From IMG/VR virus record IMGVR_UViG_3300044712_000123: a DNA stretch of 64,000 nucleotides; one strand, given 5' to 3'. Numbering within the stretch: position 1 is the stretch's first letter; every line of letters starts with the position of its first letter. A program made the position numbers and the translations under genes. Positions 8,407 through 31,169 of the stretch are shown piece by piece. A model generated the notes under the pieces. That model saw only the letters and a list, made by a program, of their open reading frames with translations, did not search any database and was not told the DNA's origin. The DNA is from a virus. Its lineage: Duplodnaviria; Heunggongvirae; Uroviricota; Caudoviricetes.

Positions 8407-8493
8407 GCGTTGTGTTCCCTGTCGCCGGCTGTAACCCGGTGGTCATATTAAGCAGGGTGGCGGCAAGAGGTTCGATTCCTTCACAACGCACCA
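8407..8493 (+). tRNA. Atypical tRNA-Tyr(GTA)-like RNA lacking a canonical D-arm
   Basis: GCGTTGT/ACAACGC-A-CCA, GCCGG ctGTAac CCGGT, GGTTCGATTCC; only about 10 nt between acceptor and anticodon stems. Confidence 0.6.
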
Positions 8494-8498
8494 ATCAT

Positions 8499-8573
8499 GG
8501 GGGCAGCAGAGGGCTGCGGAGATGCCTTGCAAGTATCTTGTCTAGAGGGGTTCGATACCCCCGGCCTCCACCA
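8499..8573 (+). tRNA. tRNA-Ala(TGC), reduced D-arm
   Basis: G3.U70, GATGC ctTGCaa GTATC, CCA. Confidence 0.75.
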
Positions 8574-8579
8574 AACAAT

Positions 8580-8654
8580 GGGCTGTTAGTGATAATGGGA
8601 GCACGGGGGCTTTGCACGTCCTAGGTAAGAGTTCGATTCTCTTACGGTCCACCA
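8580..8654 (+). tRNA. tRNA-Ala(TGC)
   Basis: G3.U70, GGGGC ttTGCac GTCCT, CCA. Confidence 0.88.
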
Positions 8655-8659
8655 GTTTT

Positions 8660-8724
8660 AGGATAGTAACAGCAACATTTATACTCTGAACTTTTAATTC
8701 AACCAGTAAAAATTCTATCCTGTT
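8660..8724 (+). ncRNA. CAGCAA-module RNA carrying a Lys(TTT) anticodon stem-loop
   Basis: AGGATAG-TAACAGCAA ... TGAA ctTTTaa TTCA ... CTATCCT-GTT. Confidence 0.7.
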
Positions 8725-8730
8725 TTATAT

Positions 8731-8805
8731 ACCCTCTTCGCCAAGTGGTAAGGCCCCGGATTTTGATTCCGGTATTCGGTGGTTCGAATCCATCAGGGGG
8801 TGCCA
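8731..8805 (+). tRNA. tRNA-Gln(TTG)
   Basis: CCGGA ttTTGat TCCGG, CCA. Confidence 0.9.
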
Positions 8806-8944
8806 AGTTGTGTTGCAACTGATTTGAGGAACTTGCGTTTAAACCTCAACGAGAATAACAAAAACACGCAGCCAAATTTATGCCGCCGTAACTCAGTAAA
8901 TTATAGTCCCAGAGCTAAATATATTATGCTAAGAGGTCTATGAC

Positions 8945-9376
8945 ATGAAAAAACTAACATACAACTGTGTTAACTGCGGTAAAGAAAATAAATGGGGTGA
9001 CAGTAAAGTAAACAAGTATTGTGATAATGCTTGTCATGCCCAACATCGTAGAAAGATAATCCTTGAAGATTGGTTATCAGGAACTTACTTCAATAAAAAA
9101 GGTGTTCCACCTGAGGTAGCTAAAGAGTGGATTAGTGAACAACAGAATCACTCTTGTCTATTGTGCGGTATTACTGAATGGAATGGAAGTTCTATTGTCT
9201 TTCAGTTTGACCATATTGACGGTGATCCTGACCACAACACTAAAGAAAACATTAGAATGTTGTGTCCAAACTGTCATTCTCAAACAGAGACATACGGTGT
9301 AAAGAATAAAAAAGCGTCAGAAAGTAGACGGAATGTTTACAGACGAGAAAATTATAAAGATAAAAAGTCTCCGTAA
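8945..9376 (+). CDS. Freestanding HNH homing endonuclease
   Basis: CxxC, CLLCG..FQFDHIDGDPDHNTKENIRMLCPNCHSQT; stop codon lies inside tRNA-Arg. Confidence 0.9.
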   Translation: MKKLTYNCVNCGKENKWGDSKVNKYCDNACHAQHRRKIILEDWLSGTYFNKKGVPPEVAKEWISEQQNHSCLLCGITEWNGSSIVFQFDHIDGDPDHNTKENIRMLCPNCHSQTETYGVKNKKASESRRNVYRRENYKDKKSP

Positions 9377-9443
9377 CTCAGTGGATTAGAGTACTTGCCT
9401 ACGAAGTAAGGAGTCGGGAGTTCGAATCTCTCCGGAGACGCCA
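9367..9443 (+). tRNA. tRNA-Arg(ACG)
   Basis: CTTGC ctACGaa GTAAG, GTCTCCG/CGGAGAC, CCA. Confidence 0.92.
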
Positions 9444-9450
9444 AGATTAT

Positions 9451-9527
9451 CCTTGAGTTAAGCGGGGCCGCGTTACGGCCTTGCAAATAGTTAGTAATGT
9501 GTACTGCAACTTACACCTCAAGGTCCA
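9451..9527 (+). ncRNA. CCA-terminated non-cloverleaf RNA
   Basis: CCTTGAG/CTCAAGG-T-CCA; GGCCG/CGGCC and TTGCA/TGCAA hairpins; no TTCG loop. Confidence 0.55.
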
Positions 9528-9535
9528 GTTTTAAT

Positions 9536-9612
9536 GCGTGGTTAGCTCAGTTTGGTAGAGCAGTAGGTTGCCAACTTACAGGTCGCAGGTTCGAACCCTG
9601 TACCCCGCACCA
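9536..9612 (+). tRNA. tRNA-Gly(GCC)
   Basis: GTAGG ttGCCaa CTTAC, CCA. Confidence 0.92.
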
Positions 9613-9617
9613 GTTTT

Positions 9618-9678
9618 AGGATCGGTTCAGCAACTCAAAAGCTAACTTTGGATGTCTAGCGACAAAAACGATCCTGTT
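9618..9678 (+). ncRNA. CAGCAA-module RNA (short; possible Gln TTG loop)
   Basis: AGGATCG-GTTCAGCAA ... AAAAA-CGATCCT-GTT. Confidence 0.7.
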
Positions 9679-9703
9679 TTATTTTCTCTAAGTTTACTTA
9701 GGT

Positions 9704-9774
9704 GTGGCCATGTTGTAATGGTAGCAACCTAGACTGTGACTCTGGTAGTTCGGGTTCGAGCCCCGATGGTCACC
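9704..9774 (+). tRNA. tRNA-His(GTG), no encoded CCA, acceptor extended by a 10-bp flanking stem
   Basis: CTAGA ctGTGac TCTGG; TTTACTTAGG (9693-9702) / CCTAAGTAAA (9775-84). Confidence 0.8.
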
Positions 9775-9787
9775 CCTAAGTAAATTT

Positions 9788-9861
9788 GCTCTTATAGTTC
9801 AATGGTAGAACACATTCTTGGTACGAATGAAATCTAAGTTCGATTCTTAGTTTGAGCACCA
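9788..9861 (+). tRNA. tRNA-Thr(GGT)
   Basis: CATTC ttGGTac GAATG, CCA. Confidence 0.9.
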
Positions 9862-9869
9862 AATTTTAT

Positions 9870-9946
9870 GCATGGATGACAGAGTGGCCTAATGTGACTG
9901 ATTGCAAACCAGTTTTTCGTGAGTTCGAATCTCACTCCATGTTCCA
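9870..9946 (+). tRNA. tRNA-Cys(GCA)
   Basis: ACTGA ttGCAaa CCAGT, U73, CCA. Confidence 0.88.
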
Positions 9947-9954
9947 ATTTTAAT

Positions 9955-10028
9955 GCGTGGTTAGTTTAATGGTAAAATAGGACGTTGCCAACGTCTTGTC
10001 AAGAGTTCGATTCTCTTACCCCGCACCA
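9955..10028 (+). tRNA. tRNA-Gly(GCC)
   Basis: GGACG ttGCCaa CGTCT, CCA. Confidence 0.9.
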
Positions 10029-10034
10029 ATCAAT

Positions 10035-10154
10035 GCCGCTGTCGTCTAATTGGCTAGGACGCTTAAAAAGGTGACTCTGACAAGAGTACATACAGCAACA
10101 TAAAAATTCCATTCTAAGGAAGTTATGGAGGTTCGAATCCTTCCGGCGGCACCA
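10035..10154 (+). tRNA. tRNA-Arg(TCT) interrupted by a 44-nt CAGCAA-module insertion
   Basis: Removing 10063-10106 gives a 76-nt cloverleaf (CTTCC atTCTaa GGAAG, GCCGCTG/CGGCGGC-A-CCA). Confidence 0.75.
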
Positions 10155-10159
10155 GTTTT

Positions 10160-10282
10160 AGGATACATTCAGCAACTAATACTTACGTCAACTAGCGTGT
10201 TGAGAGTTCGAACCTCTCCTTCGTTCTTATGGACGATGTAGCTCAATTGGTAGAGCAGCCAGCAAGTAAAAAGTATCCTGTC
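10160..10282 (+). ncRNA. CAGCAA-module RNA carrying a circularly permuted tRNA (T-arm, looped acceptor, D-arm)
   Basis: AGGATAC..GAGAG ttcgaac CTCTC-CTTCGTT/GACGATG-TAGCTC aattggta GAGC..GTATCCT. Confidence 0.75.
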
Positions 10283-10289
10283 TTATTAT

Positions 10290-10364
10290 GCTCCATTAGT
10301 TCACGTGGTAGAATAACGGTTTTGTAGTCCGTAGAAGGCAGTTCAAGTCTGTCATGGAGCACCA
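10290..10364 (+). tRNA. tRNA-Thr(TGT)
   Basis: ACGG-t ttTGTag t-CCGT, CCA. Confidence 0.85.
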
Positions 10365-11047
10365 ATTATGTTCAGTAAGTTGTCGGCAAATTGTTTATTG
10401 TTGCCCACACCAGAATGCATTAAATCTCTTGCCGCATCCTTTATTGGATCGTTGTCAACTTCCTTTGCAATAATAAATTTTGATTTTATCTTATTGCACA
10501 ATAATTCTATAGCACCGAGATTTTTCTCCTCATTGAGAATATGATTATATTCACATGAGAACCATTCTTTGTAGTTTGCAACTGACATAGATGAATGAGG
10601 ATTATGTGCTATAGGTCTAGTACTATAGTTAAACATTTCAAATCTAGCCGGATCAGGTGGCCGTATGACTACGATCTTTGGTTTTAGCCGATCGATGTAG
10701 TAGCTAGCTAAACGATACGCAGTATCACTAGAGCAGCCTCCCTGACCTAAGTTAACGCACTTCAGTTTTAATGCTTTTGCTGTTTGGTATGCCCAAGTAG
10801 CTTCAAGCGGCAGACCCACACCTAATGTATGACTACAACCTAAAAACATAATAGAGTCATCATCGGTAAATTCGTCACATCTAAACCCGTGACTATTAAA
10901 TTTATATGTGAAGGATGCATCTATCCAACCGTTAGATTGTAATCCTTCATAGTTGTTTTTTAGATTATCTAAGTATTGTGTTTTACTGTCAGTGCCCAGC
11001 CATTGGGACTCTTTAAAACTGTAAAACGAAAATGATCTGAAATTCAT
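10352..11047 (-). CDS. Hypothetical protein, SGNH/GDSL-hydrolase-like
   Basis: FNSHGFRCDEF..FLGCSHTLGVGL..NLGQGGCS..DLMHSG; stop overlaps tRNA-Thr antisense. Confidence 0.65.
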   Translation of the reverse strand: MNFRSFSFYSFKESQWLGTDSKTQYLDNLKNNYEGLQSNGWIDASFTYKFNSHGFRCDEFTDDDSIMFLGCSHTLGVGLPLEATWAYQTAKALKLKCVNLGQGGCSSDTAYRLASYYIDRLKPKIVVIRPPDPARFEMFNYSTRPIAHNPHSSMSVANYKEWFSCEYNHILNEEKNLGAIELLCNKIKSKFIIAKEVDNDPIKDAARDLMHSGVGNNKQFADNLLNIIGAP

Positions 11048-11786: not shown

Positions 11787-11878
11787 GGAAAGTAATGCAG
11801 CGGGGATGGTCCTGCGACTGGCCTTGAAAACCAGGTTCTCTTAACGGGGATGGGGTTCGACTCCTCTGCTTTCCGCCA
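11787..11878 (+). tRNA. tRNA-Ser(TGA)
   Basis: CTGG ctTGAaa CCAG, long variable arm, G73, CCA. Confidence 0.85.
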
Positions 11879-11884
11879 AACAAT

Positions 11885-11977
11885 GGGGTGTCTGGAGACG
11901 ATCAGGTTCGATTCCTGTTTAAGGTGGTCCAAGTCAGCGCGCGGCACGTTAGGGTTCGATTCCCTCTCACTCCACCA
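11885..11977 (+). ncRNA. Anticodon-less Ala-identity tRNA-like RNA with two T-loops
   Basis: GGGGTG/CACTCC-A-CCA with G3.U70; CAGG ttcgatt CCTG and AGGG ttcgatt CCCT. Confidence 0.6.
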
Positions 11978-11983
11978 AGTTAC

Positions 11984-12040
11984 GGGACAAAAAAATAGAT
12001 GCTGACAAGTATCTTAACTGCAATCAAAACTGTCCCGCCA
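11984..12040 (+). ncRNA. CCA minihelix carrying a permuted CAGCAA-like module
   Basis: GGGACA..AAAAAAT-AGATGCT gaca AGTATCT-TAACTGCAA-TCAAAAC..TGTCCC-G-CCA. Confidence 0.65.
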
Positions 12041-13422: not shown

Positions 13423-13983
13423 ATGGCTGTTCTAGCACTAGATATTTCGGGAACTCCCCGGCAATGGATCTCATACGATGACGCAATCGCCTACCACGCA
13501 ACTGATTCAGTAGCATGGTCAATGGGCGAAATTGTTGCTAAGTATCATGGTGGCGTCCAAAAGGACGGATCACTGAGTTACCTAGAAACACCTAGCATCA
13601 TCGCTATTAAGGGACACGGGTACAACCCACATCGACACGCAAATGTAGCATTGACTAACCGAACCTTGTTCGGTCGAGACAGAAACGTTTGTGCATACTG
13701 TGGTGAACACTTCGCTAACTACAATCATCTAAGCCGCGACCATATCGTTCCACGATTCCATGGTGGCGAAAACACTTGGATGAACTGTGTTACTGCTTGC
13801 AAAGAATGTAACTCTAAAAAGGGTCACAAGACTTTGAAGGAAGCACGTATGGAACTGTTGTACGCTCCTTATGCGCCTAATCACTATGAAAACATGATTC
13901 TACAACATCGCACGATCCTCGCAGATCAGATGGAATACTTGATGGCAGGTGTGCCCAAGCATTCAAGAATCTTGCTTTCTTAG
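13423..13983 (+). CDS. HNH endonuclease
   Basis: RDRNVCAYCG..SRDHIVPRFHGGENTWMNCVTACKECNSKKG. Confidence 0.92.
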   Translation: MAVLALDISGTPRQWISYDDAIAYHATDSVAWSMGEIVAKYHGGVQKDGSLSYLETPSIIAIKGHGYNPHRHANVALTNRTLFGRDRNVCAYCGEHFANYNHLSRDHIVPRFHGGENTWMNCVTACKECNSKKGHKTLKEARMELLYAPYAPNHYENMILQHRTILADQMEYLMAGVPKHSRILLS

Positions 13984-14261: not shown

Positions 14262-14336
14262 CTGGCGTTCGTTCAACGGATAGGACATCATTCTTCTAAA
14301 GTGATTATAGGGGTTCGATTCCCTTACGCCGGACCA
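14262..14336 (+). tRNA. tRNA-Arg(TCT)
   Basis: TCATT ctTCTaa AGTGA, CCA. Confidence 0.9.
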
Positions 14337-15486: not shown

Positions 15487-15692
15487 GTAGTGTAGTTTAG
15501 GCTGATGGACGGCAATCTGTTCGCAGTCTGATACTTGACTTCCTGAGACAGTAGCTTTGCCGAGCGAATCACAGGGAAGTTCGATATGGTGGAATTGGCA
15601 AACACAGGTGCTTTTGAAGGCGTCTGAGGTTAAACTCTTGTAGGTTCGAATCCTACTATCGATTTATCAAGCGTCAGCCTAAACTACATTAC
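15487..15692 (+). ncRNA. Long stem-bounded RNA containing a Leu-type tRNA body (15581-15662) with aberrant anticodon loop and no CCA
   Basis: GTAGTGTAGTTTAGGCTGATG / CGTCAGCCTAAACTACATTAC; GGTGGAATTGGCAAACAC; GTAGG ttcgaat CCTAC. Confidence 0.6.
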
Positions 15693-16880: not shown

Positions 16881-16965
16881 GGAGATGAAGCATCAATGGT
16901 GATGCAGTGGACTGTAAATCCGCCGCTTTATAGCACGACTGGTTCGATCCCAGTAATCTCCACCA
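16881..16965 (+). tRNA. tRNA-Tyr(GTA)
   Basis: GTGGA ctGTAaa TCCGC, variable arm, CCA. Confidence 0.9.
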
Positions 16966-20098: not shown

Positions 20099-20963
20099 GG
20101 GGGCTTAGCCTCATTAGAATAAGCATAGTGATATGCCCAAAGCGGTCGTCTCCTACAGACCCGCGCTAGAAATAGTTCATCTAAGCAAGCCTGCTTACAC
20201 CCGTGAGGGTGCGATCACTGATAAGACCGGTGGTTGTAACTGTAAAGCAAGTGTGTTGGAAAGAATGTCTGTTTATGTTCCCGTGAGGGTAAGACAGGCG
20301 GACAGAGAGTAACAGGTGGTGCTGACCTCAACACAAAACCAACTTGTCAACAGGTATAAGAAAAGGTAGTGTATTGATTCGAGGGGTTGCACCCAAGAGT
20401 TCGTATGCAGTTTGAGTGGTTAGTGGATATGTATGGTAACAGGCATATACACCGATCGTGAAAGACGACTGAGTAGTTCGCAAGACAAAAGGTACGTGGC
20501 GTGTTGTATTTTGTAGTCCAAAAGATTATGAAGCAACTGAGACAGCACATCACAGTAGGTTGTTATAGATCATTGGTAGATCAATTCTCTGTTAAAGAAT
20601 AGGCAGCAGGTTCAATTCCCGCTAACAAATAAAAAAGCAAAGTCTGTCTCGGTTGTATGTGAAAAGCATCTAATACTGGAGCCGCAAGGTAATTCAGTCA
20701 GACGTAACTCGCAAGGTGAAATCTGTTTATGCAGGAAGTTTCGTAAGTTGTTAGCGCAACTGAATGGCTCGCAAGGTCAGCGGAGTAGAAAGCGTAGAAT
20801 AGCATACAATGTCAAGTCTAATGCCTGACTTAAAACGGCGATGTTGGTAACAGACTAGGATACTCAGCAATGAGGCTTAGTGGAAATCAGAAGAAAGCAG
20901 TCTCGCAAGGATTGTAATAATGTCTGAGGTGTTACTCGGTAAGGATGTATTCTCAGTCCTCCA
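20099..20963 (+). ncRNA. GOLLD-like giant structured RNA (about 865 nt)
   Basis: ORF-free; many GNRA hairpins; GGGGGCT/AGTCCTCC end pairing; ACTGAGACAG/CTGTCTCGGT long-range pairing; located in a tRNA cluster and carrying an internal tRNA. Confidence 0.65.
20559..20629 (+). tRNA. tRNA-Asn(GTT)-like domain embedded in the giant RNA; no CCA
   Basis: GATC attggta GATC; ATTCT ctGTTaa AGAAT; GCAGG ttcaatt CCCGC; TTGTTA/TAACAA. Confidence 0.7.
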
Positions 20964-22060: not shown

Positions 22061-22179
22061 AGGTTCATTTCAGCAATCAAAATAATCTTTCTGTAAAAAA
22101 GAGGGACTGGGTTCGAATCCCAGCAGTGAGTTGGTCTTCACTGTGGTGTAATGGTAGCACGAAAAAAGTTGAACCTGTT
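22061..22179 (+). ncRNA. CAGCAA-module RNA carrying a complete circularly permuted tRNA-Tyr(GTA)
   Basis: AGGTTCA-TTTCAGCAA..TCTTT ctGTAaa AAAGA..CTGGG ttcgaat CCCAG-CAGTGAG/TTCACTG-TG-GTGT aatggt AGCAC..TGAACCT-GTT. Confidence 0.8.
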
Positions 22180-23091: not shown

Positions 23092-23679
23092 ATGAAATCT
23101 CTTAATATAGAACTACCAGACTTTCACTGTGACCTAACTGAGCAAGACTTATTAGATATGCATGACATTATTCAAGTAGGGAAACTTGCTTGGAGTCCTT
23201 CGGAGAAAAAAGTAGTAGATTACTCCGATGTTCCGGTATTTAGATTATACACGACTTATGATCCAAACGTAACTAGTAATGTAAATCCTGCATTAAATCA
23301 TGCTAGATGGTTCCCCTTACAACCTGCGTTTTATCGAGTTTGTGCAGGAACCGGAAATACAAAACTCATTGATTTATTTGGACAACTAGTGAATGAAGCT
23401 ATCCGACTTTATGATAAGCCGTTTTCGACAGTAAGTTGTATACTATGTGATGAAACCATCAGTAAGCACATTCACTCAGTAGACCCTAGTAAGAATGTAG
23501 TTACTACTACTTTTTATTGGTGTTTGACTGAGAATACACTTGACGCAGATTTTTTTATCGAAGATGAAGTTTATCCTGTGTTTCGTCAGGGAATGTGGGA
23601 ATTCGACCCAGCAACACCACACGGCTTAATCAGTAAAGATAAAAATATGAGATTTTATGTGTTGATTGATAATCTATGA
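23092..23679 (+). CDS. Cupin/2OG-oxygenase-like protein
   Basis: SKHIHS..FDPATPHGL. Confidence 0.55.
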   Translation: MKSLNIELPDFHCDLTEQDLLDMHDIIQVGKLAWSPSEKKVVDYSDVPVFRLYTTYDPNVTSNVNPALNHARWFPLQPAFYRVCAGTGNTKLIDLFGQLVNEAIRLYDKPFSTVSCILCDETISKHIHSVDPSKNVVTTTFYWCLTENTLDADFFIEDEVYPVFRQGMWEFDPATPHGLISKDKNMRFYVLIDNL

Positions 23680-24362
23680 ACATTAATAAAGATAGGGATA
23701 TGATAATCATAGGCCATCCAAGAAGCGGTAGCTTTTGGTTGCAAAGTTGTATGCCTCACTTTAATTGTCGGGAACTTTTCAATACAGTTAACTTCGACAT
23801 TGTTGGTAAAAATGAAAAACAATTACTAATCAGTTCATATAAAAGTGTGCTACTTGATGAACAGCATGAAGATGAAGAAATTAGAAAACGCATTGAATTA
23901 TTGAGTACCATCAACGTTCCTAAGGTTACAAAAATACTTACATTTCAATTTCAGTACGCACATAGAACAAAATGGAATAGTACTATTTTTGATTGGGTCA
24001 ATTCACAAGATGCGGATGTAGTATGGATAAAAAGAAAAGATAAGTTAGCAAGTTTCAAGTCTTTACTAGTAGCTGACTCTTTGGGAAAATATATAGGTCC
24101 CATAGGTGCATCGGAATGCACAGTTGATATACAACGATTACCTTGGTTGATAGATAGTTTAAGTTACGATAAGGATACTTATATCAGAGAACAACTGAAC
24201 AAGGATATACATGATGTATGGTATGAAGAATTGCTAGACGATTCTTCCTTTAAAAACACATCATCAATGGTAGTTCAAAAATCAAGCGAAGTAACTATTA
24301 CTAACTGGCAAGAAGTAGTTAATAGTTTACCTTCAGAGGTAAAGCATGATATCGGACTTTGA
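23676..24362 (+). CDS. Sulfotransferase-like P-loop protein
   Basis: IIIGHPRSGSFWL; IKRKD..S; WYEEL. Confidence 0.6.
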   Translation: MNINKDRDMIIIGHPRSGSFWLQSCMPHFNCRELFNTVNFDIVGKNEKQLLISSYKSVLLDEQHEDEEIRKRIELLSTINVPKVTKILTFQFQYAHRTKWNSTIFDWVNSQDADVVWIKRKDKLASFKSLLVADSLGKYIGPIGASECTVDIQRLPWLIDSLSYDKDTYIREQLNKDIHDVWYEELLDDSSFKNTSSMVVQKSSEVTITNWQEVVNSLPSEVKHDIGL

Positions 24363-24948
24363 GATTCTGCATCAACCTGTTCCTGATTTTACTAGTCATA
24401 TCGCCTGTTTGGATCGACTAATCAGTGTAGGTAGCACAGCATATAATCCCGAGACTAACACGATTAATGGTAGTTTTATTAATGATGGTGTTGGATTATT
24501 CATCATACATTCTAGTGTGTTTTGTCAATACTTTACTATCACTAAATCACCCTACCCTATGTTCCCTACATTGAATAGGGGTATTGCAAATAATGTAAGC
24601 AGATATGTGTATGACGGGATAAAAGAGTTGTATCTGATGTGTAAGTCGATGGTAAAGATTGATTACAACACTGTTAACTTCAACTTAGCACGAACATCGG
24701 TATACAAACACACTCATAAGTTTGCATCACCAAACGATACTTCGATTGATACTCAAGTATTTCAGTTTAAGTTAACCAACTTAGGACCAAGAAACAGTAC
24801 GTTTAAACTTTATAGTTCTGAATATGTTGAATTACCGATGACTGATAATTGCACCTTTAGATTTAACGGTATGTTAGAACATGAAGTAGCTAGTGCAGAA
24901 GATCCTAATTACTATGGATACTTCGTATTTGAAAAGTGGCCAGAATGA
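24346..24948 (+). CDS. Cupin/2OG-oxygenase-like protein
   Basis: YKHTH..FNGMLEHEV. Confidence 0.5.
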   Translation: MISDFEILHQPVPDFTSHIACLDRLISVGSTAYNPETNTINGSFINDGVGLFIIHSSVFCQYFTITKSPYPMFPTLNRGIANNVSRYVYDGIKELYLMCKSMVKIDYNTVNFNLARTSVYKHTHKFASPNDTSIDTQVFQFKLTNLGPRNSTFKLYSSEYVELPMTDNCTFRFNGMLEHEVASAEDPNYYGYFVFEKWPE

Positions 24949-25508
24949 TTTGCTTTAGAGAAATTGAAATAGAAAACTACGAACAATGCAATACTGAACT
25001 AACGGAAATGTTTAATAGGCAATATGTGAATCCTACTGCCATCGAACGCTTTTGGAACTTTCCGAACGAAACAGATTTCTTTGCGATGTGTCCCGCGGTA
25101 ATCAATAGTCTCGGTAAGTTAGGGTTGACTGTTAATCACGTGTATATGATATCAATATCAAATAATCATCCCGAATCGATTCACATTGACTATAAAGCTA
25201 ATCCAGTTAGGCTACATTGGCCAATCTACAATGTAGGTTCTGCGTTGACTAAATGGTACGAGTATGACGGATCGTATGATGAAGCGGATCTAAAAAACAT
25301 TGATGGTAATGGACCTCTGTACGCAGAGTTTGATAAAAATAAATGTTCAGTAATCAGCGAACTTATTATGGTTAAACCTACAATGTTTAGAGTTGATATA
25401 CCACACAGTGCAGGTATAATATCTTCTATGCCTCAACCTAGAGTAGCTTTCAGCTTTAGTTTTAAAGAGCAAGATAGAACAGAGGTAATTTTAAATGAAG
25501 GCTTATAA
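24945..25508 (+). CDS. Cupin/2OG-oxygenase-like protein
   Basis: IHIDY..FRVDIPHSA..RVAFSF. Confidence 0.6.
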   Translation: MICFREIEIENYEQCNTELTEMFNRQYVNPTAIERFWNFPNETDFFAMCPAVINSLGKLGLTVNHVYMISISNNHPESIHIDYKANPVRLHWPIYNVGSALTKWYEYDGSYDEADLKNIDGNGPLYAEFDKNKCSVISELIMVKPTMFRVDIPHSAGIISSMPQPRVAFSFSFKEQDRTEVILNEGL

Positions 25509-26043
25509 AGTAGAACAGTTTACTAAAATGACCCCTGAGTTAGAGGAGTTCATGAAAATAACCAAAGATAGAGGTCTAGTCAATAACTCAAGTCTTGATA
25601 TGCTATATAGTTATCGCAACGAGAAGGACCATGCACTATTCACCTTGTGGTACAATGATATAATCGTAGGAACGTTCGGGGCGCATTCAATGGATTTTCT
25701 ACCCAACTCATATAGAATATGTGCAAGAATGTGCATATTAACAGACTTGACAGATTACCCCTCAGTGAGAACGTTAAATCAGATAAAGACAAACAAGCAT
25801 TTGACTGCATTATATGCTATTCCCAAATGCATTGAGTGGGTACGTAGTGTAAATGAATCAGGGGATATGTTCATCACTAGTCACCCTTCGGACGTTGGTA
25901 CTCAAAGACTGGTTCATAATATATATTGTCCAGCTATGGAGAAACTTTCAGTATTGAAAAATGAAGGGGAGTACTTTTACCGAGGTGCCGTCCAGACATT
26001 TTGGAAATTAAACCCTGAAAAATTTTATGAAACAATTCAGTGA
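25495..26043 (+). CDS. Hypothetical protein, possibly GNAT-like
   Basis: IIVGTFGAHS..YRICARMC; coupled ORF. Confidence 0.55.
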   Translation: MKAYKVEQFTKMTPELEEFMKITKDRGLVNNSSLDMLYSYRNEKDHALFTLWYNDIIVGTFGAHSMDFLPNSYRICARMCILTDLTDYPSVRTLNQIKTNKHLTALYAIPKCIEWVRSVNESGDMFITSHPSDVGTQRLVHNIYCPAMEKLSVLKNEGEYFYRGAVQTFWKLNPEKFYETIQ

Positions 26044-26608
26044 CACATTTTTCTTTCGCTTAGGCGCGATGAAGTTTTCAGAATCATTTGACGGGTTAAC
26101 TAAGCTAACTGACGTTTGCACATACGATGCAACAATGTATGCAACAAACGAACCCAAGTACTGCATGATTCGTAAACAAGAAACCACATTCAGACCTCAT
26201 TTAGTGAGGCACTTGAACCTATTAGATGATGAAATGCGAAACTATATTCAACGGATGTGGGATGCATCAAATACATTTGTGCAATCTATTGGAATCGAAC
26301 CGTATCAATGCTTCTTGGTAATTTCTAGTAATCGTTATAGTGTTCCGGATCACACGCACGGCGACCACATGGGAGATACTATTACAGTAGTGTCATCATT
26401 AGGTAACAGTGTTTCAGATACATATCTTTGCTTAGGTGACAATACTAGATTGAAATACCCTGAACCGAATGAAGGCAACTATGCAGTTTGCTTTGATGGC
26501 AACATTGTCCATAGTATGGATGCACACGATGACAATTACTATTTTCATTTTGTGTATGATTTAACTACTAGTGTAGATTTTCCAAAGAACATCTGGATTA
26601 AGTTATGA
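26027..26608 (+). CDS. Cupin/2OG-oxygenase-like protein
   Basis: PDHTHGD..FDGNIVHSM. Confidence 0.6.
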   Translation: MKQFSDTFFFRLGAMKFSESFDGLTKLTDVCTYDATMYATNEPKYCMIRKQETTFRPHLVRHLNLLDDEMRNYIQRMWDASNTFVQSIGIEPYQCFLVISSNRYSVPDHTHGDHMGDTITVVSSLGNSVSDTYLCLGDNTRLKYPEPNEGNYAVCFDGNIVHSMDAHDDNYYFHFVYDLTTSVDFPKNIWIKL

Positions 26609-27219
26609 ACAAAGTAGAAGAGGCAGTACTTGAGTGGATAGAACGTAACAATCTTTCATATGAAAAGACTGATTGGGGTTTTATTACATCTGCCTTCAAT
26701 ATCAAATGCATACCGAACAATCAATCGTTTCCTATATACAAAGAAAAGAATGATAGAATAGTTGCAGAGTGGGCACTAGCGCAACATATCGTTCGCCTTG
26801 ATGATTGGATCAACAAGAGACCAACTCTACGTATTGAGAAATTATCCATCAATGTCGAAACAACAGAAGATAAGATTCTAGTAACCGCTAAACGTGACGA
26901 TACATTGATTGCCGAGTCAGAATTATGGATTGAGGACACTTGCATATATTGGCACGACACACGTTATCATGGTTACCATGTTCCCGGTTGGCTATCTAAA
27001 ACACTACGAACTGTGTTAAGATTGAATTTAAATTTGCCTATTGAGACTATTACCAATTCAATCGATAGTTCGTATCATCGTATTGGATTTAGAACAGTAG
27101 AAAAATTTGATGTACGTGATTATGTGAGACGGTCTAAACTCCCTAGTAAGATTCCATTCACAAATCCAGAAAACATCATAATGTGGAGATTAGTTTATGA
27201 TAGTATCAGCACCGTATAG
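26605..27219 (+). CDS. Hypothetical protein
   Basis: 204 aa coupled ORF. Confidence 0.7.
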   Translation: MNKVEEAVLEWIERNNLSYEKTDWGFITSAFNIKCIPNNQSFPIYKEKNDRIVAEWALAQHIVRLDDWINKRPTLRIEKLSINVETTEDKILVTAKRDDTLIAESELWIEDTCIYWHDTRYHGYHVPGWLSKTLRTVLRLNLNLPIETITNSIDSSYHRIGFRTVEKFDVRDYVRRSKLPSKIPFTNPENIIMWRLVYDSISTV

Positions 27220-27730
27220 ATCAGGTGGCACCTCATTATGCACAATATTAGCATCTGAACATAACCTAAGGTTTGCCGGACAGATTGATAACAATGCAGT
27301 ACCCTTCACACGAATGGAAGACAAGAACTTCATTCACGAACATCAGAATCAACCAGATCATACTATCAACTCAATCACTAAGTTGTTGATTGACGATAGT
27401 AATGATATTATTCTAAACAACTCAAACCCTGCTCTATTCTCTAGAAGTGATTATTTCATCATGCGTAGTGATATGAGTCAGGTATATTCATCTATGTATT
27501 GGATGATGACTAAGTTGTATCCTAATATGGGTAAGCATCCAATTGAAATGATGTTCAAACGCATTACATTCTACAACGCATTGTTCCTGGATTACTTGAA
27601 AGAAACTAATACAGAGCCATTGATTCTGGAAGAACAACCATGGTATGTTCCTAAAGATAATCATATAGTACCTAAGGAGATACAGGACATGATTCCAACA
27701 TACACAGTATATTTGGAGGCATTTAAATGA
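27197..27730 (+). CDS. Sulfotransferase-like P-loop protein
   Basis: IVSAPYRSGGTSL. Confidence 0.5.
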   Translation: MIVSAPYRSGGTSLCTILASEHNLRFAGQIDNNAVPFTRMEDKNFIHEHQNQPDHTINSITKLLIDDSNDIILNNSNPALFSRSDYFIMRSDMSQVYSSMYWMMTKLYPNMGKHPIEMMFKRITFYNALFLDYLKETNTEPLILEEQPWYVPKDNHIVPKEIQDMIPTYTVYLEAFK

Positions 27731-28335
27731 AAAGAGTTTTGATAGTAGGAGCTGATAGTGGTATCGGTGAAGCATTGTTCAACAGAATCGAAGGAAGTAT
27801 AGGCACCTCACGCCGCTCAGATAGTAAACACATTCTATTGGATGTATTATCCCCTGAGACTTATCCAACTTTTGAAGAAAAGTTTGATGAGATATACTTC
27901 TGTACTGGGTTAGGTGGCAAGATGGGAACAACTGAGCAAGTTATTGAAGTCAATGCTACAAAAGCAATTGAATGCCTACATCATTTAGCATCCTACGTTG
28001 TCGAAGGTGGTTCTATAAGAGTTATGTCTAGTATCACTGCATCATTATCATTTGCGGTGAATACCCCAATGTCATCGATACCTACATCTTACCGAATGAG
28101 TAAAGTCGCATTGAATATGGGGGTAATTAAATTACACCACGCTTTTCCAGAGATTAATTGGCAGTTAGTTCATCCTGGATTAGTGAGAACAAAGATGACA
28201 GAAGATATATTAATAACTGACAGTAAGTACAAAATGATTTCTCCGGAGGAATCAGCACAAAGGATCCTTGCTACATCAGTAGACAAGCGATTAAGTTTTG
28301 TTAACGTAATCTCGGGACATGACATTCCTTGGTAA
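27727..28335 (+). CDS. Short-chain dehydrogenase/reductase
   Basis: VGADSGIG, YRMSK (YxxxK), HPGLVRTKM. Confidence 0.88.
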   Translation: MKRVLIVGADSGIGEALFNRIEGSIGTSRRSDSKHILLDVLSPETYPTFEEKFDEIYFCTGLGGKMGTTEQVIEVNATKAIECLHHLASYVVEGGSIRVMSSITASLSFAVNTPMSSIPTSYRMSKVALNMGVIKLHHAFPEINWQLVHPGLVRTKMTEDILITDSKYKMISPEESAQRILATSVDKRLSFVNVISGHDIPW

Positions 28336-29449: not shown

Positions 29450-29600
29450 AGGATCGGTACAGCAATAATTTACTTTATTGGAACTGATGGATCGCATGGT
29501 AGCTATTGGAGTCTACGGACGTTGAAGGTAGTTATTGAAATGCATCTATCGCAATAGGAGTGATGGCCCTATTCAAAAAGCAGTCAACAACGATCCTGTT
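29450..29600 (+). ncRNA. CAGCAA-module RNA with about 115-nt cargo
   Basis: AGGATCG-GTACAGCAA ... CGATCCT-GTT; inner ACTG/CAGT, GATGGAT/ATCTATC, AATAGG/CCTATT. Confidence 0.7.
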
Positions 29601-29662: not shown

Positions 29663-29719
29663 AGGATGCATTCAGCAACTTTAATCTTTTTCATAATAAG
29701 AGCAAAAGCGCATCCTGTT
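29663..29719 (+). ncRNA. CAGCAA-module RNA carrying a Met(CAT) anticodon stem-loop
   Basis: AGGATGC-ATTCAGCAA..TCTT-t ttCATaa t-AAGA..GCATCCT-GTT. Confidence 0.72.
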
Positions 29720-29744: not shown

Positions 29745-31169
29745 ATGCAATTCGCAGAAGCAATCAAAAACCAAGAAGTTCGTACTACTAATGGTATGAA
29801 GGCACGTAAGTCAAGCGCAAACGCTTGTGTAGACTTGTTCTACAACCTAGGTGCAAGCCGAGGTAAAAACGTTATCCCAGCATTCACTGCGGCTTATGTC
29901 GAGAACAGTGATCTGGCACTGCGTATTGCACAGTGGGCACGTGATGCCCGCGGTGGTTCCGGTGAACGCCAAGTGTTCCGAGATATTCTTGTTCACTTGG
30001 AAAAGACTAACCCAGAAGACGCTATGCGTTTGATGGCGAAGATCCCAGAAATCGGTCGTTATGACGACTTGCTAGTGTTTAAGACTCAGCCTGTGAAGGC
30101 TAAGGCATACACTATGCTTGGCGATGCACTTCGTGCCCGTAACGGTCTCGCGGCTAAGTGGACTCCTCGTAAGGGTGAAGTCGCACGTGAAATCCGCGAA
30201 TTCTTCGGAATGACTCCTAAGCAATACCGTAAGAGCCTTGTTGCACTTACTAACGTTGTGGAAACACAAATGTGTGCTAAGGATTGGGATAACATCAACT
30301 TCTCGCATGTTCCTTCAGTGGCACATGCACGTTACAAGAAGGCGTTTGGCCGTAATGGCACAACTTACGCTGAATACGTAACTAAGTTGGTTAAGGGCGA
30401 AGCAGGTGTCAAAATCAACGCTGGTGCAGTTTTCCCTTACGATGTGTTGAAGGGTGCTATCAACCGATACAGCCGTTCAGCTATGTCTAAGACTGAGTTG
30501 GATGCATTGCAAGCCCAATGGGACGCATTGCCTAACTACGTCGGTGACGCTAACGTGTTGCCTATGGTTGACTCGTCAGGTTCGATGACTTGCGCGGCAG
30601 GTGGTTACAACTCTAAGTCAGGCTTGTCTTGCTTGGATGTTGCACTGTCTTTGGGCTTGTACTTCGCTGACAAGAACAAGGGTAAGTTCAAGGATACGTT
30701 CTTGACTTTCTCTAACACACCAAAGTTGGTTAACTTGAAGGGTAACATCAATCAAAAGATTGACCAAATGAACACAGGCGAAGTTGCTAACACCAACTTG
30801 AATGCGGCGTTCAACTTGATCCTCAAGACAGCGTTGGACAACAATGTTCCTCAAGCAGAAATGCCAGAAACATTGGTGATCTTCTCTGACATGCAGTTCG
30901 ACCAAGGCGTTAAGCACGATGACAGCGCAATCGAAATGATTGCACGTAAGTATGAAGCCGCAGGCTACGCGATCCCTAAGGTCGTGTTCTGGAACTTGAA
31001 TGCCGCTTATGGCAACACCCCTGTCAAGTTCGATAAGAGTGGTACCGCTCTTGTCTCTGGTTTCAGCCCAGCTGTTGCAACTTCTGTATTGTCAGGAGAC
31101 TTGGAAGACTTCACACCAGAAGCTATCATGTTGAAGACAGTTATGAAGGATCGTTACGACTTGTCGTAA
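29745..31169 (+). CDS. DUF2828-family TROVE-like/vWA protein (Ro60-like architecture)
   Basis: N-terminal TTNG..VDLF..RDARGGSGERQVF..GRYDDL..AKWTPR helical region; vWA MIDAS VDSSGSM..T..SDMQFD..VFWNL..VSGFS. Confidence 0.8.
   Translation: MQFAEAIKNQEVRTTNGMKARKSSANACVDLFYNLGASRGKNVIPAFTAAYVENSDLALRIAQWARDARGGSGERQVFRDILVHLEKTNPEDAMRLMAKIPEIGRYDDLLVFKTQPVKAKAYTMLGDALRARNGLAAKWTPRKGEVAREIREFFGMTPKQYRKSLVALTNVVETQMCAKDWDNINFSHVPSVAHARYKKAFGRNGTTYAEYVTKLVKGEAGVKINAGAVFPYDVLKGAINRYSRSAMSKTELDALQAQWDALPNYVGDANVLPMVDSSGSMTCAAGGYNSKSGLSCLDVALSLGLYFADKNKGKFKDTFLTFSNTPKLVNLKGNINQKIDQMNTGEVANTNLNAAFNLILKTALDNNVPQAEMPETLVIFSDMQFDQGVKHDDSAIEMIARKYEAAGYAIPKVVFWNLNAAYGNTPVKFDKSGTALVSGFSPAVATSVLSGDLEDFTPEAIMLKTVMKDRYDLS

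Follow-up and report, generated by a model that had tools for sequence, protein, structure and literature searches.

The virus recorded as IMGVR_UViG_3300044712_000123 (Caudoviricetes) carries, at positions 10035-10154, what reads as a tRNA-Arg(UCU) gene broken within its anticodon stem by an insert of 44 nt. The question raised by this locus is whether the insert is removed from the RNA, stays in it as a functional part, or marks a gene that no longer has any function. Coordinates given here refer to the window, i.e. the whole stretch of 64,000 nt of DNA that was analysed.

The locus is part of a tRNA island with 49 tRNAs called by ARAGORN and a GOLLD RNA (20496-20959; Rfam 215.7 bits), the latter having a tRNA-Asn(gtt) embedded at 20558-20631. 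A class II tRNA-Tyr(gta) at 16881-16965 escaped ARAGORN with default settings and appeared once the threshold was lowered; counting this gene, the island has tRNAs for all 20 amino acids. Several further sequences in the window resemble tRNAs. Two of them (8407-8493 and 8499-8573) possess an acceptor stem, a T arm and ACCA together with aberrant GC-rich middles and are called by neither ARAGORN nor Rfam, another two end in CCA and were likewise missed by the finders (11787-11878 and 11885-11977, the second with two T-arm-like GGTTCGATTCC elements), and one (15579-15665; tRNA-??? according to ARAGORN, 35.8 bits in Rfam) has an 8-nt anticodon loop (ttga). ORFs for HNH endonucleases occur among the tRNA genes (8945-9376 and 13423-13983), and nine consecutive, tightly packed ORFs on one strand (23092-28335; 177-228 aa, eight of them without a Pfam match) may represent an array of paralogues.

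The interrupted gene and the module inserted in it

Deletion of 10063-10106 (44 nt) restores, as the initial annotation had it, a 76-nt tRNA-Arg(tct) with an encoded CCA. ARAGORN recognises in the deleted form a 7-bp acceptor stem and the D, anticodon and T arms, and the cloverleaf marks U8, G18G19, U33, R37, the T-loop TTCGAAT and CCA are all present. No tRNA is returned for the native sequence 10035-10154 by either ARAGORN or the Rfam tRNA model; with its length of 120 nt and its discontinuous anticodon stem, the gene departs from a canonical tRNA (5-bp stem, 73-93 nt, recognised by a finder). The tRNA-Trp(cca) with a 40-nt 'intron' at 32/33 that ARAGORN proposes in its intron mode has a mismatched stem and was discarded as spurious. 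The register of the deletion is ambiguous by 2 nt, with TT on both sides. The pairs 27:43 and 28:42 covary across the insert in 32 homologues (see below), and the insert is thus placed between tRNA nucleotides 28 and 29, i.e. at 10064-10107. It consists of the linker TAAAAAG, a hairpin with one bulged G, the sequence ATA-CAGCAA and an A-rich linker, so that the whole locus is laid out as follows (A2 denotes the alignment of the homologues).

10035-10063, plus strand: 5' part of the tRNA, comprising the acceptor 5' strand (10035-10041), the D arm (10044-10060), nt 26 and nt 27-28 (CT, 10062-10063); recognised by ARAGORN after the deletion, with helices, including pairs 27:43 and 28:42, that covary in A2
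10064-10070, plus strand: 5' linker of the handle, TAAAAAG; A-rich, ending in AAAG in 32 of 32 homologues and matching the AAAAA(G) linker that precedes the 3' stem strand of open modules
10071-10089, plus strand: handle stem P1 and GACA loop, GTGACTCT / GACA / AGAGTAC; 7 bp with one bulged nucleotide, recovered by RNAalifold, with 99% of cells paired and two pairs changing on both sides; equals the AGGATNN/NNATCCT stem of open modules
10090-10098, plus strand: ATA and the single-stranded motif CAGCAA; CAGCA is invariant in A2 (partly set by the search pattern)
10099-10107, plus strand: 3' linker of the handle, CATAAAAAT; A/U-rich, varying in length among the homologues in A2
10108-10154, plus strand: 3' part of the tRNA, with nt 29-31 (TCC), the loop ATTCTAA (anticodon UCU), GGAAG, the variable loop, the T arm, the acceptor 3' strand, discriminator A and CCA

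Folding of the single sequence brings a modest gain over shuffled sequences (z = -2.1), and the structural support comes from comparative data rather than from this fold. The nearest intact tRNA of the window is identical to the interrupted gene at no more than 54 of 76 positions, and the gene is no recent copy of any of them. An intact tRNA-Arg(TCT) does exist at 14262-14336, in agreement with the initial annotation.

The same annotation described the insert as the 3' half, a GACA loop and the 5' half of a module found elsewhere in the window, and this is indeed its order: the module is closed at its stem and opened at its cargo. In their usual, open form, located at 8660, 9618, 10160, 19738, 22061, 29450 and 29663, the modules start with AGGATNN, three bases and CAGCAA, continue with a linker, a variable cargo and an A-rich linker, and end with NNATCCT. 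Their core pattern, AGGATNNNNNCAGCAA, occurs six times in the window against an expectation of 0.06, and the last two stem pairs vary between the open copies, each time with compensation. The cargo in the window may be a bare anticodon-type hairpin, a unit of T arm, closed acceptor stem and D arm, a complete permuted tRNA, or a longer domain. The open-handle RNAs most relevant here are the following.

10160-10279, plus strand: open-handle RNA adjacent to the interrupted gene, a YrlA-like permuted tRNA in which the acceptor stem is closed and both T and D arms are present; stem AGGATAC/GTATCCT
22061-22176, plus strand: open-handle RNA with a complete circularly permuted tRNA bearing a GUA anticodon loop; break at 26/27, atypical short variable loop
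29450-29716, plus strand: pair of open-handle RNAs, 29450-29597 and 29663-29716, immediately preceding the gene for a Ro60-like protein

The Rfam YrlA model (RF02553) scores 34.2 bits on 10178-10280 (E 3.3e-5), which is below its gathering score of 69. The break in the 22061 RNA, previously equated with the site of the insert, is close to it but not identical (26/27 versus 28/29). The permuted tRNA in this RNA is redundant, as a normal class II tRNA-Tyr(GTA) exists at 16881-16965; the idea that it is the sole tRNA-Tyr of the phage, which would favour processing, was ruled out by the same gene.

A scan of 2.9 million viral contigs found the open form in at least 119 of them. With loci fetched later included, 214 distinct open modules with a closing stem are available, and their cargo is short in 108, tRNA-like in 67 and long in 39; bare U33/R37 anticodon-type hairpins make up 72 of the 108 short modules, the commonest anticodon being UUU. 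Bare acceptor minihelices that end in GCCA (window 11984-12040 and the fetched loci L024 and L046) contain closed handles as well. The one in the window is a 57-nt minihelix (GGGACA...TGTCCC plus GCCA) that contains nothing but a closed handle, with GACA as its loop and CTGCAA as a variant of the motif. The CAGCAA motif also follows stems of other sequence in Felixounavirus, in KVP40 and in Cronobacter phage S13. In Escherichia phage Andreotti (Felixounavirus; L162 8716-9931) and Vibrio phage KVP40 (L163 616-3832), unannotated open-handle RNAs lie between annotated tRNAs, with stems AGACCNN/NNGGTCT or AGACANN and an unchanged CAGCAA. Since the stems differ in these phages and CAGCAA is the same, CAGCAA is the constant element and the stem is structural. 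The family is defined by a covarying 7-bp stem, 3 nt, CAGCA(A/T/C), A-rich linkers and co-occurrence with DUF2828 proteins. Rfam, searched at gathering scores and with E up to 10, assigned neither the insert nor the short modules to a family, and with E up to 10 nothing credible besides tRNA and YrlA was detected in 8600-10400. A K-turn in the internal loop of the handle was considered and rejected, as the non-bulged strand has AAG, not GA, beside the stem.

Conservation of the interrupted tRNAs

A pattern scan for the closed form revealed this design in 45 viral contigs, adding 31 distinct sequences to that of the window, and all but one of the 45 are tRNAs interrupted at the same place. Early finders of closed hairpins (exact stems; RNAfold filter) missed true cases with bulges and returned mostly chance matches, and a bulge-tolerant finder was used; because the search pattern fixed most handle positions, CAGCA included, the apparent invariance of the handle is partly circular. 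In alignment A2, which comprises 32 distinct interrupted-tRNA sequences, 98.7% of cells pair and both sides change in 17 of the 28 pairs. These measures were reached by none of 500 shuffles, and slid registers also remained far below them. RNAalifold, run without guidance, recovered four tRNA helices (acceptor, D, lower anticodon and T) together with the bulged hairpin of the handle, and all tRNA helices covary among the 32 homologues. The two pairs split by the insert deserve particular attention: 27:43 is CG in 26 sequences, AU in five and UA in one, and 28:42 is UA in 17, GC in nine, CG in five and UG in one. The anticodon stem thus forms across the insert. The linkers flanking the handle differ in both length and sequence.

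The search for related viruses having the tRNA with or without the insert, proposed in the initial annotation, yielded the 45 contigs with it, and insert-less copies of the two commonest insert-bearing scaffolds were absent from all 2.9 million contigs; the insert is therefore unlike a mobile intron with presence/absence polymorphism. When 9500-10400 was compared as DNA with the GenBank phage collection, ordinary tRNAs were the only matches.

While the scaffold is maintained, the anticodon is not: among the interrupted tRNAs of A2 we counted GUC 18 times, UCU four times, UAC twice and UCG, GAC and UCC once each, and anticodons switch on near-identical scaffolds (L145 versus L152; L125 versus L148). 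Among the 32 homologues, the discriminator base does not change in step with the anticodon. CCA is kept and the loop is a canonical 7-nt U33/R37 loop in most copies, with an 8-nt loop in five of 32.

The insert is also present in contigs from metatranscriptome libraries (X25, X19, X16, X17 and X27). Contig X25 (152 nt) covers 10034-10161 with two differences, and X19 is a fragment over 10055-10132 that runs into adapter. A 44-nt skip corresponding to a spliced junction was absent from the assembled contigs of eight RNA runs, in which DNA may have been carried over, rare spliced forms may have been dropped and transcript ends and strands are invisible. Standard RNA-seq libraries capture mature tRNAs poorly. 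Metatranscriptome contigs of relatives in run X27, with loose ends at 10097-10105, lead from the handle into the anticodon loops ATGTCAA (GUC) and ATTTCAA (UUC), which adds a Glu-type loop to those listed above.

The Ro60-like protein and the possible role of the RNA

Ro60 proteins and their Y RNAs are conserved from bacteria to humans. The window encodes a protein of potential relevance in this respect.

29745-31169, plus strand: 474-aa Ro60-like protein, presumed partner of the handle; Pfam DUF2828 and DUF7788, with a helical repeat domain and a vWA domain

The open-handle RNAs upstream of this ORF end 29 nt before it. Neither a PDB search with the single 474-aa sequence nor the Pfam TROVE model gave a match, and a sequence profile search ranked TROVE proteins first, with weak matches. 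An AF2 model built from 110 diverse homologues (pLDDT 93) found, with Foldseek against the PDB, Ro60/TROVE structures in all of its top 13 matches (E 1e-8 to 4e-6, TM 0.38-0.64), coming from frog, human, Deinococcus and the Thermus phage phiLo; they are followed by generic vWA domains only, so that nothing but Ro60/TROVE structures is matched by the model over the whole protein. The residues of the MIDAS motif DxSxS of the vWA domain (D276, S278 and S280) are invariant. The product of 29745-31169 is, as predicted by this model, a protein of the Ro60/TROVE fold, with a helical-repeat ring and a C-terminal vWA domain. The DUF2828-type family to which it belongs is very large and mostly viral, with 702 GenBank phage records and carriers that include Felix O1-type coliphages, KVP40, and phages of Listeria and Staphylococcus as well as mycobacteriophages; to mycobacteriophage proteins annotated as 'Ro-like RNA binding protein' the identity is 32-33%.

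Handle modules and the Ro-like gene are repeatedly found together. In 43 fetched loci with a DUF2828 gene, modules and gene share a strand, and the nearest open handle ends no more than 400 nt upstream of the gene in about 30 of these loci. All five large phage genomes with an interrupted tRNA (191-383 kb) encode one copy of the Ro-like protein. The interrupted tRNA-Arg of the window itself is on the same strand as the Ro-like gene, 19.6 kb away and inside the tRNA array. In Cronobacter phage S13 the order is Ro-like gene (AVV44_gp245), promoter-like site, two closed-handle tRNAs and an open-handle RNA, the interrupted tRNAs beginning about 500 nt after the Ro-like gene; the RefSeq entry (NC_028773) lists these handle-bearing tRNAs as 'tRNA-Ser' (121 nt; 132703-132823, L161 7872-7992) and 'tRNA-OTHER' (113 nt; 132833-132945, L161 8002-8114). 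In the 121-nt 'tRNA-Ser' the insert appears to lie in or beside the anticodon loop rather than at 28/29. That the handle docks the Ro-like protein is inferred from this gene neighbourhood and from analogy with Y RNAs.

Two readings were originally offered for the insert, a fifth, protein-binding arm and a new tiny intron, and the former is the better supported, by the conserved handle of a family linked to a Ro60-like protein, by the covarying cloverleaf and by the unspliced contigs from RNA libraries. The interrupted tRNA-Arg is most likely a protein-docking tRNA mimic, because its arm is the handle of a family of phage RNAs that occurs together with a Ro60-like protein; more precisely, we think it probable that it is a Y-RNA-like molecule in unpermuted tRNA topology whose arm stays in place and docks the Ro-like protein. 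Such an RNA would be made and trimmed like the neighbouring tRNAs and would retain the arm when mature, having a full cloverleaf, a free acceptor end with CCA, an Arg-UCU loop and a 44-nt side arm between nucleotides 28 and 29. In known Y RNAs, Ro60 is bound by the terminal stem together with a conserved strand in the internal loop, and the handle might bind the Ro-like ring in the same manner. The tRNA body would then be the effector and offer its exposed anticodon loop and its CCA end to some factor that binds tRNAs, possibly a host anticodon nuclease or an enzyme of tRNA repair or modification. The anticodons displayed by handle RNAs (Lys-UUU, Arg-UCU/UCG, Asp-GUC, Tyr-GUA, Met-like CAU and, in a metatranscriptome relative, Glu-UUC) are classic targets of anticodon nucleases, and a role as bait, sponge or repair platform is therefore a reasonable guess, although a guess it is. 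Points that speak against the docking arm are the distance of 19.6 kb to the Ro-like gene, the motif CAGCAA where YrlA has GNCGAA, and the lack of an Rfam YrlA match. Every tRNA feature is moreover maintained by selection, CCA included and, in most copies, the canonical 7-nt loop, as one could equally expect of a tRNA that undergoes splicing or charging.

For the insert to be a new intron, a protein-dependent reaction would have to cut the handle out at both linkers and religate the ends into tRNA-Arg(UCU), the permuted tRNAs being circularised. Precise excision does produce a near-ideal tRNA with the exon pairs 27:43 and 28:42 maintained, and most copies retain CCA and a canonical anticodon loop. 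The element also surrounds complete permuted tRNAs, which parallels the bulge-helix-bulge motif, and some permuted cargos (L009) contain ACCA and a normal inter-tRNA spacer within their acceptor loop. However, most handle RNAs hold cargo unable to become a tRNA (anticodon hairpins, minihelices, 160-250-nt domains), the linkers that would serve as splice sites are variable, 8-nt loops occur in five of 32 copies, intact isoacceptors are available in the window, the insert exhibits no presence/absence polymorphism, and the eight RNA runs lack a spliced junction (as contigs, weak evidence). The 23 ORFs scanned with Pfam in the first 34 kb of the window include no RNA ligase, kinase/phosphatase or splicing endonuclease; identified among them were SAM synthetase, HNH endonucleases, two 2OG-oxygenase-type proteins and a short-chain dehydrogenase. 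The proposal of a new tiny intron type has thus gained no positive support, and we deem it unlikely. As had been anticipated, the insert is neither a group I nor a bulge-helix-bulge intron, given its size, its position and its unpairable junctions: with 44 nt it compares with about 200 nt or more for a P1-P9 core, it is located in the 5' strand of the anticodon stem and not in the loop, it has no Rfam intron match, and TAAAAAG and CATAAAAAT, the linkers of variable length, cannot pair. In a broader version of the splicing idea, the handle would be the signal of a viral RNA cutting-and-joining system, an analogue of the bulge-helix-bulge with the Ro-like ring as its platform, which would splice interrupted tRNAs and circularise permuted ones; we find this rather improbable.

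It is also conceivable that the RNA is a chargeable tRNA-Arg that decodes AGA with the arm attached, the arm serving recruitment or regulation. The tRNA elements and CCA are all intact and the anticodon loop of the window copy is canonical, but the ribosomal P site contacts base pairs 29:41 and 30:40, and decoding is not expected because an arm at 28/29 should clash with the decoding sites of the ribosome. Anticodons, moreover, switch on the same scaffold without changes in identity elements, 8-nt loops occur, and a standard tRNA-Arg(UCU) already exists in the window. As far as can be judged from the sequence, charging of the interrupted tRNA is doubtful, and its use in decoding quite improbable. 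Finally, the gene might be a functionless tRNA pseudogene split by a repeated or mobile sequence, as could be suspected from the repetition of the module in the window and from the failure of ARAGORN and Rfam to call the gene. An unconserved insert had been named as a sign of a simple pseudogene, yet 32 distinct homologues, obtained from many samples, share the insert and show compensatory changes in each helix, also in the one that spans the insert, and the design is kept in cultured phages of another host group. A decaying pseudogene is ruled out by covariation keeping the tRNA helices around the insert, and a lack of function altogether is improbable in the extreme.

Returning to the protein-docking tRNA mimic, its interest extends beyond this locus. 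One and the same handle carries every part of a tRNA: an anticodon hairpin in some RNAs, an acceptor minihelix or a permuted tRNA in others, and in this gene an entire unpermuted tRNA whose CCA end is free. The changing anticodon loops on fixed scaffolds, combined with the anti-defence activity reported for phage Bas63 (see below), make an action on host tRNA-targeting immunity or on tRNA repair testable. Phage tRNA counts and codon-usage arguments are also affected, because handle genes are missed or annotated as odd 113-121-nt tRNAs.

Relation to known systems

The bulge-helix-bulge motif, in which a 4-bp helix at the exon-intron junctions separates two bulges of 3 nt, is associated with tRNA introns and with split and permuted tRNA genes in Archaea and the red alga Cyanidioschyzon merolae. 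The handle resembles it in being one element with two settings: within tRNAs, where its position is non-canonical, and around tRNAs that are circularly permuted. It differs in that its junctions are A-rich and unpairable, no splicing endonuclease is present in the scanned ORFs and most of its carriers are not tRNAs. A further lead is provided by the Class I RNAs of dictyostelids, whose 11-nt motif ends in ACAGCAA. A short stem joins the ends of these RNAs, the conserved motif adjoins the 5' stem strand and the remainder is variable (Kjellin et al. 2021, PMC7919456). They thus share the layout of the handle, but they are eukaryotic and have other known partner proteins, and they serve here as a lead only.

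Close counterparts are also the YrlA-type Y RNAs of bacterial and phage Ro60 (Rsr) proteins (RF02553; Chen et al. 2014, PMC4201824; Wang et al. 2018, bioRxiv 10.1101/312249), and mycobacteriophages with Ro60 orthologs have been reported to carry YrlA-like Y RNAs (PMC4201824). The shared features are a protein-binding stem, a conserved single-stranded motif in the adjoining internal loop, a tRNA-like domain with T and D arms, and location on the same strand as a gene of the Ro60 type; YrlA itself has been described as a circularly permuted tRNA. In YrlA, however, the ends are located in the Ro-binding stem, the acceptor stem is closed, and there is neither CCA nor an anticodon loop. The acceptor ends of the interrupted tRNA-Arg, by contrast, are free and bear CCA, its anticodon arm is complete, and its handle, at 28/29, is capped by a tetraloop. 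As the handle is closed in a gene with its ends in the acceptor stem, the RNA is a circular permutant of the YrlA layout. The motif is CAGCAA here and GNCGAA in YrlA, and the protein belongs to the DUF2828 branch, not to Pfam TROVE. Formally, the interrupted tRNA-Arg is separated from YrlA by three features, namely the Rfam score (RF02553 has no match on 10035-10154), the position of the ends, which YrlA has in the Ro-binding stem, and the motif, GNCGAA in YrlA, while it does have the tRNA-like domain with T and D arms. As regards proximity to the Ro60-type gene (within 4 kb for YrlA), this copy shares the strand of the gene at a distance of 19.6 kb, while handle RNAs elsewhere in the window come as close as 29 nt.

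Two reports concern a phage Ro60-like protein next to small RNAs. The Thermus phage phiLo has a Ro60 with the adjacent small RNAs Yrl1 and Yrl2, which bear a CGAA motif (PMC12135203). In Bas63, a phage of the Felix O1 type, the Ro60-like gp130 adjoins tRNA genes and counters the ppl defence, and the authors suggested that some of these 'tRNA genes' may be Y RNAs (bioRxiv 10.1101/2024.10.10.617714). In another Felixounavirus we observed both the DUF2828 homologue and open handles. The arrangement is alike in both cases, but the CAGCAA handle and the tRNA interrupted by it are described in neither, and our search of the literature on DUF2828, phage Y RNAs and permuted or intron-containing phage tRNAs retrieved no published description of them. 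The interrupted tRNA-Arg is best filed as a new topological variant within a hitherto undescribed handle family of the Ro-like proteins of the DUF2828 branch.
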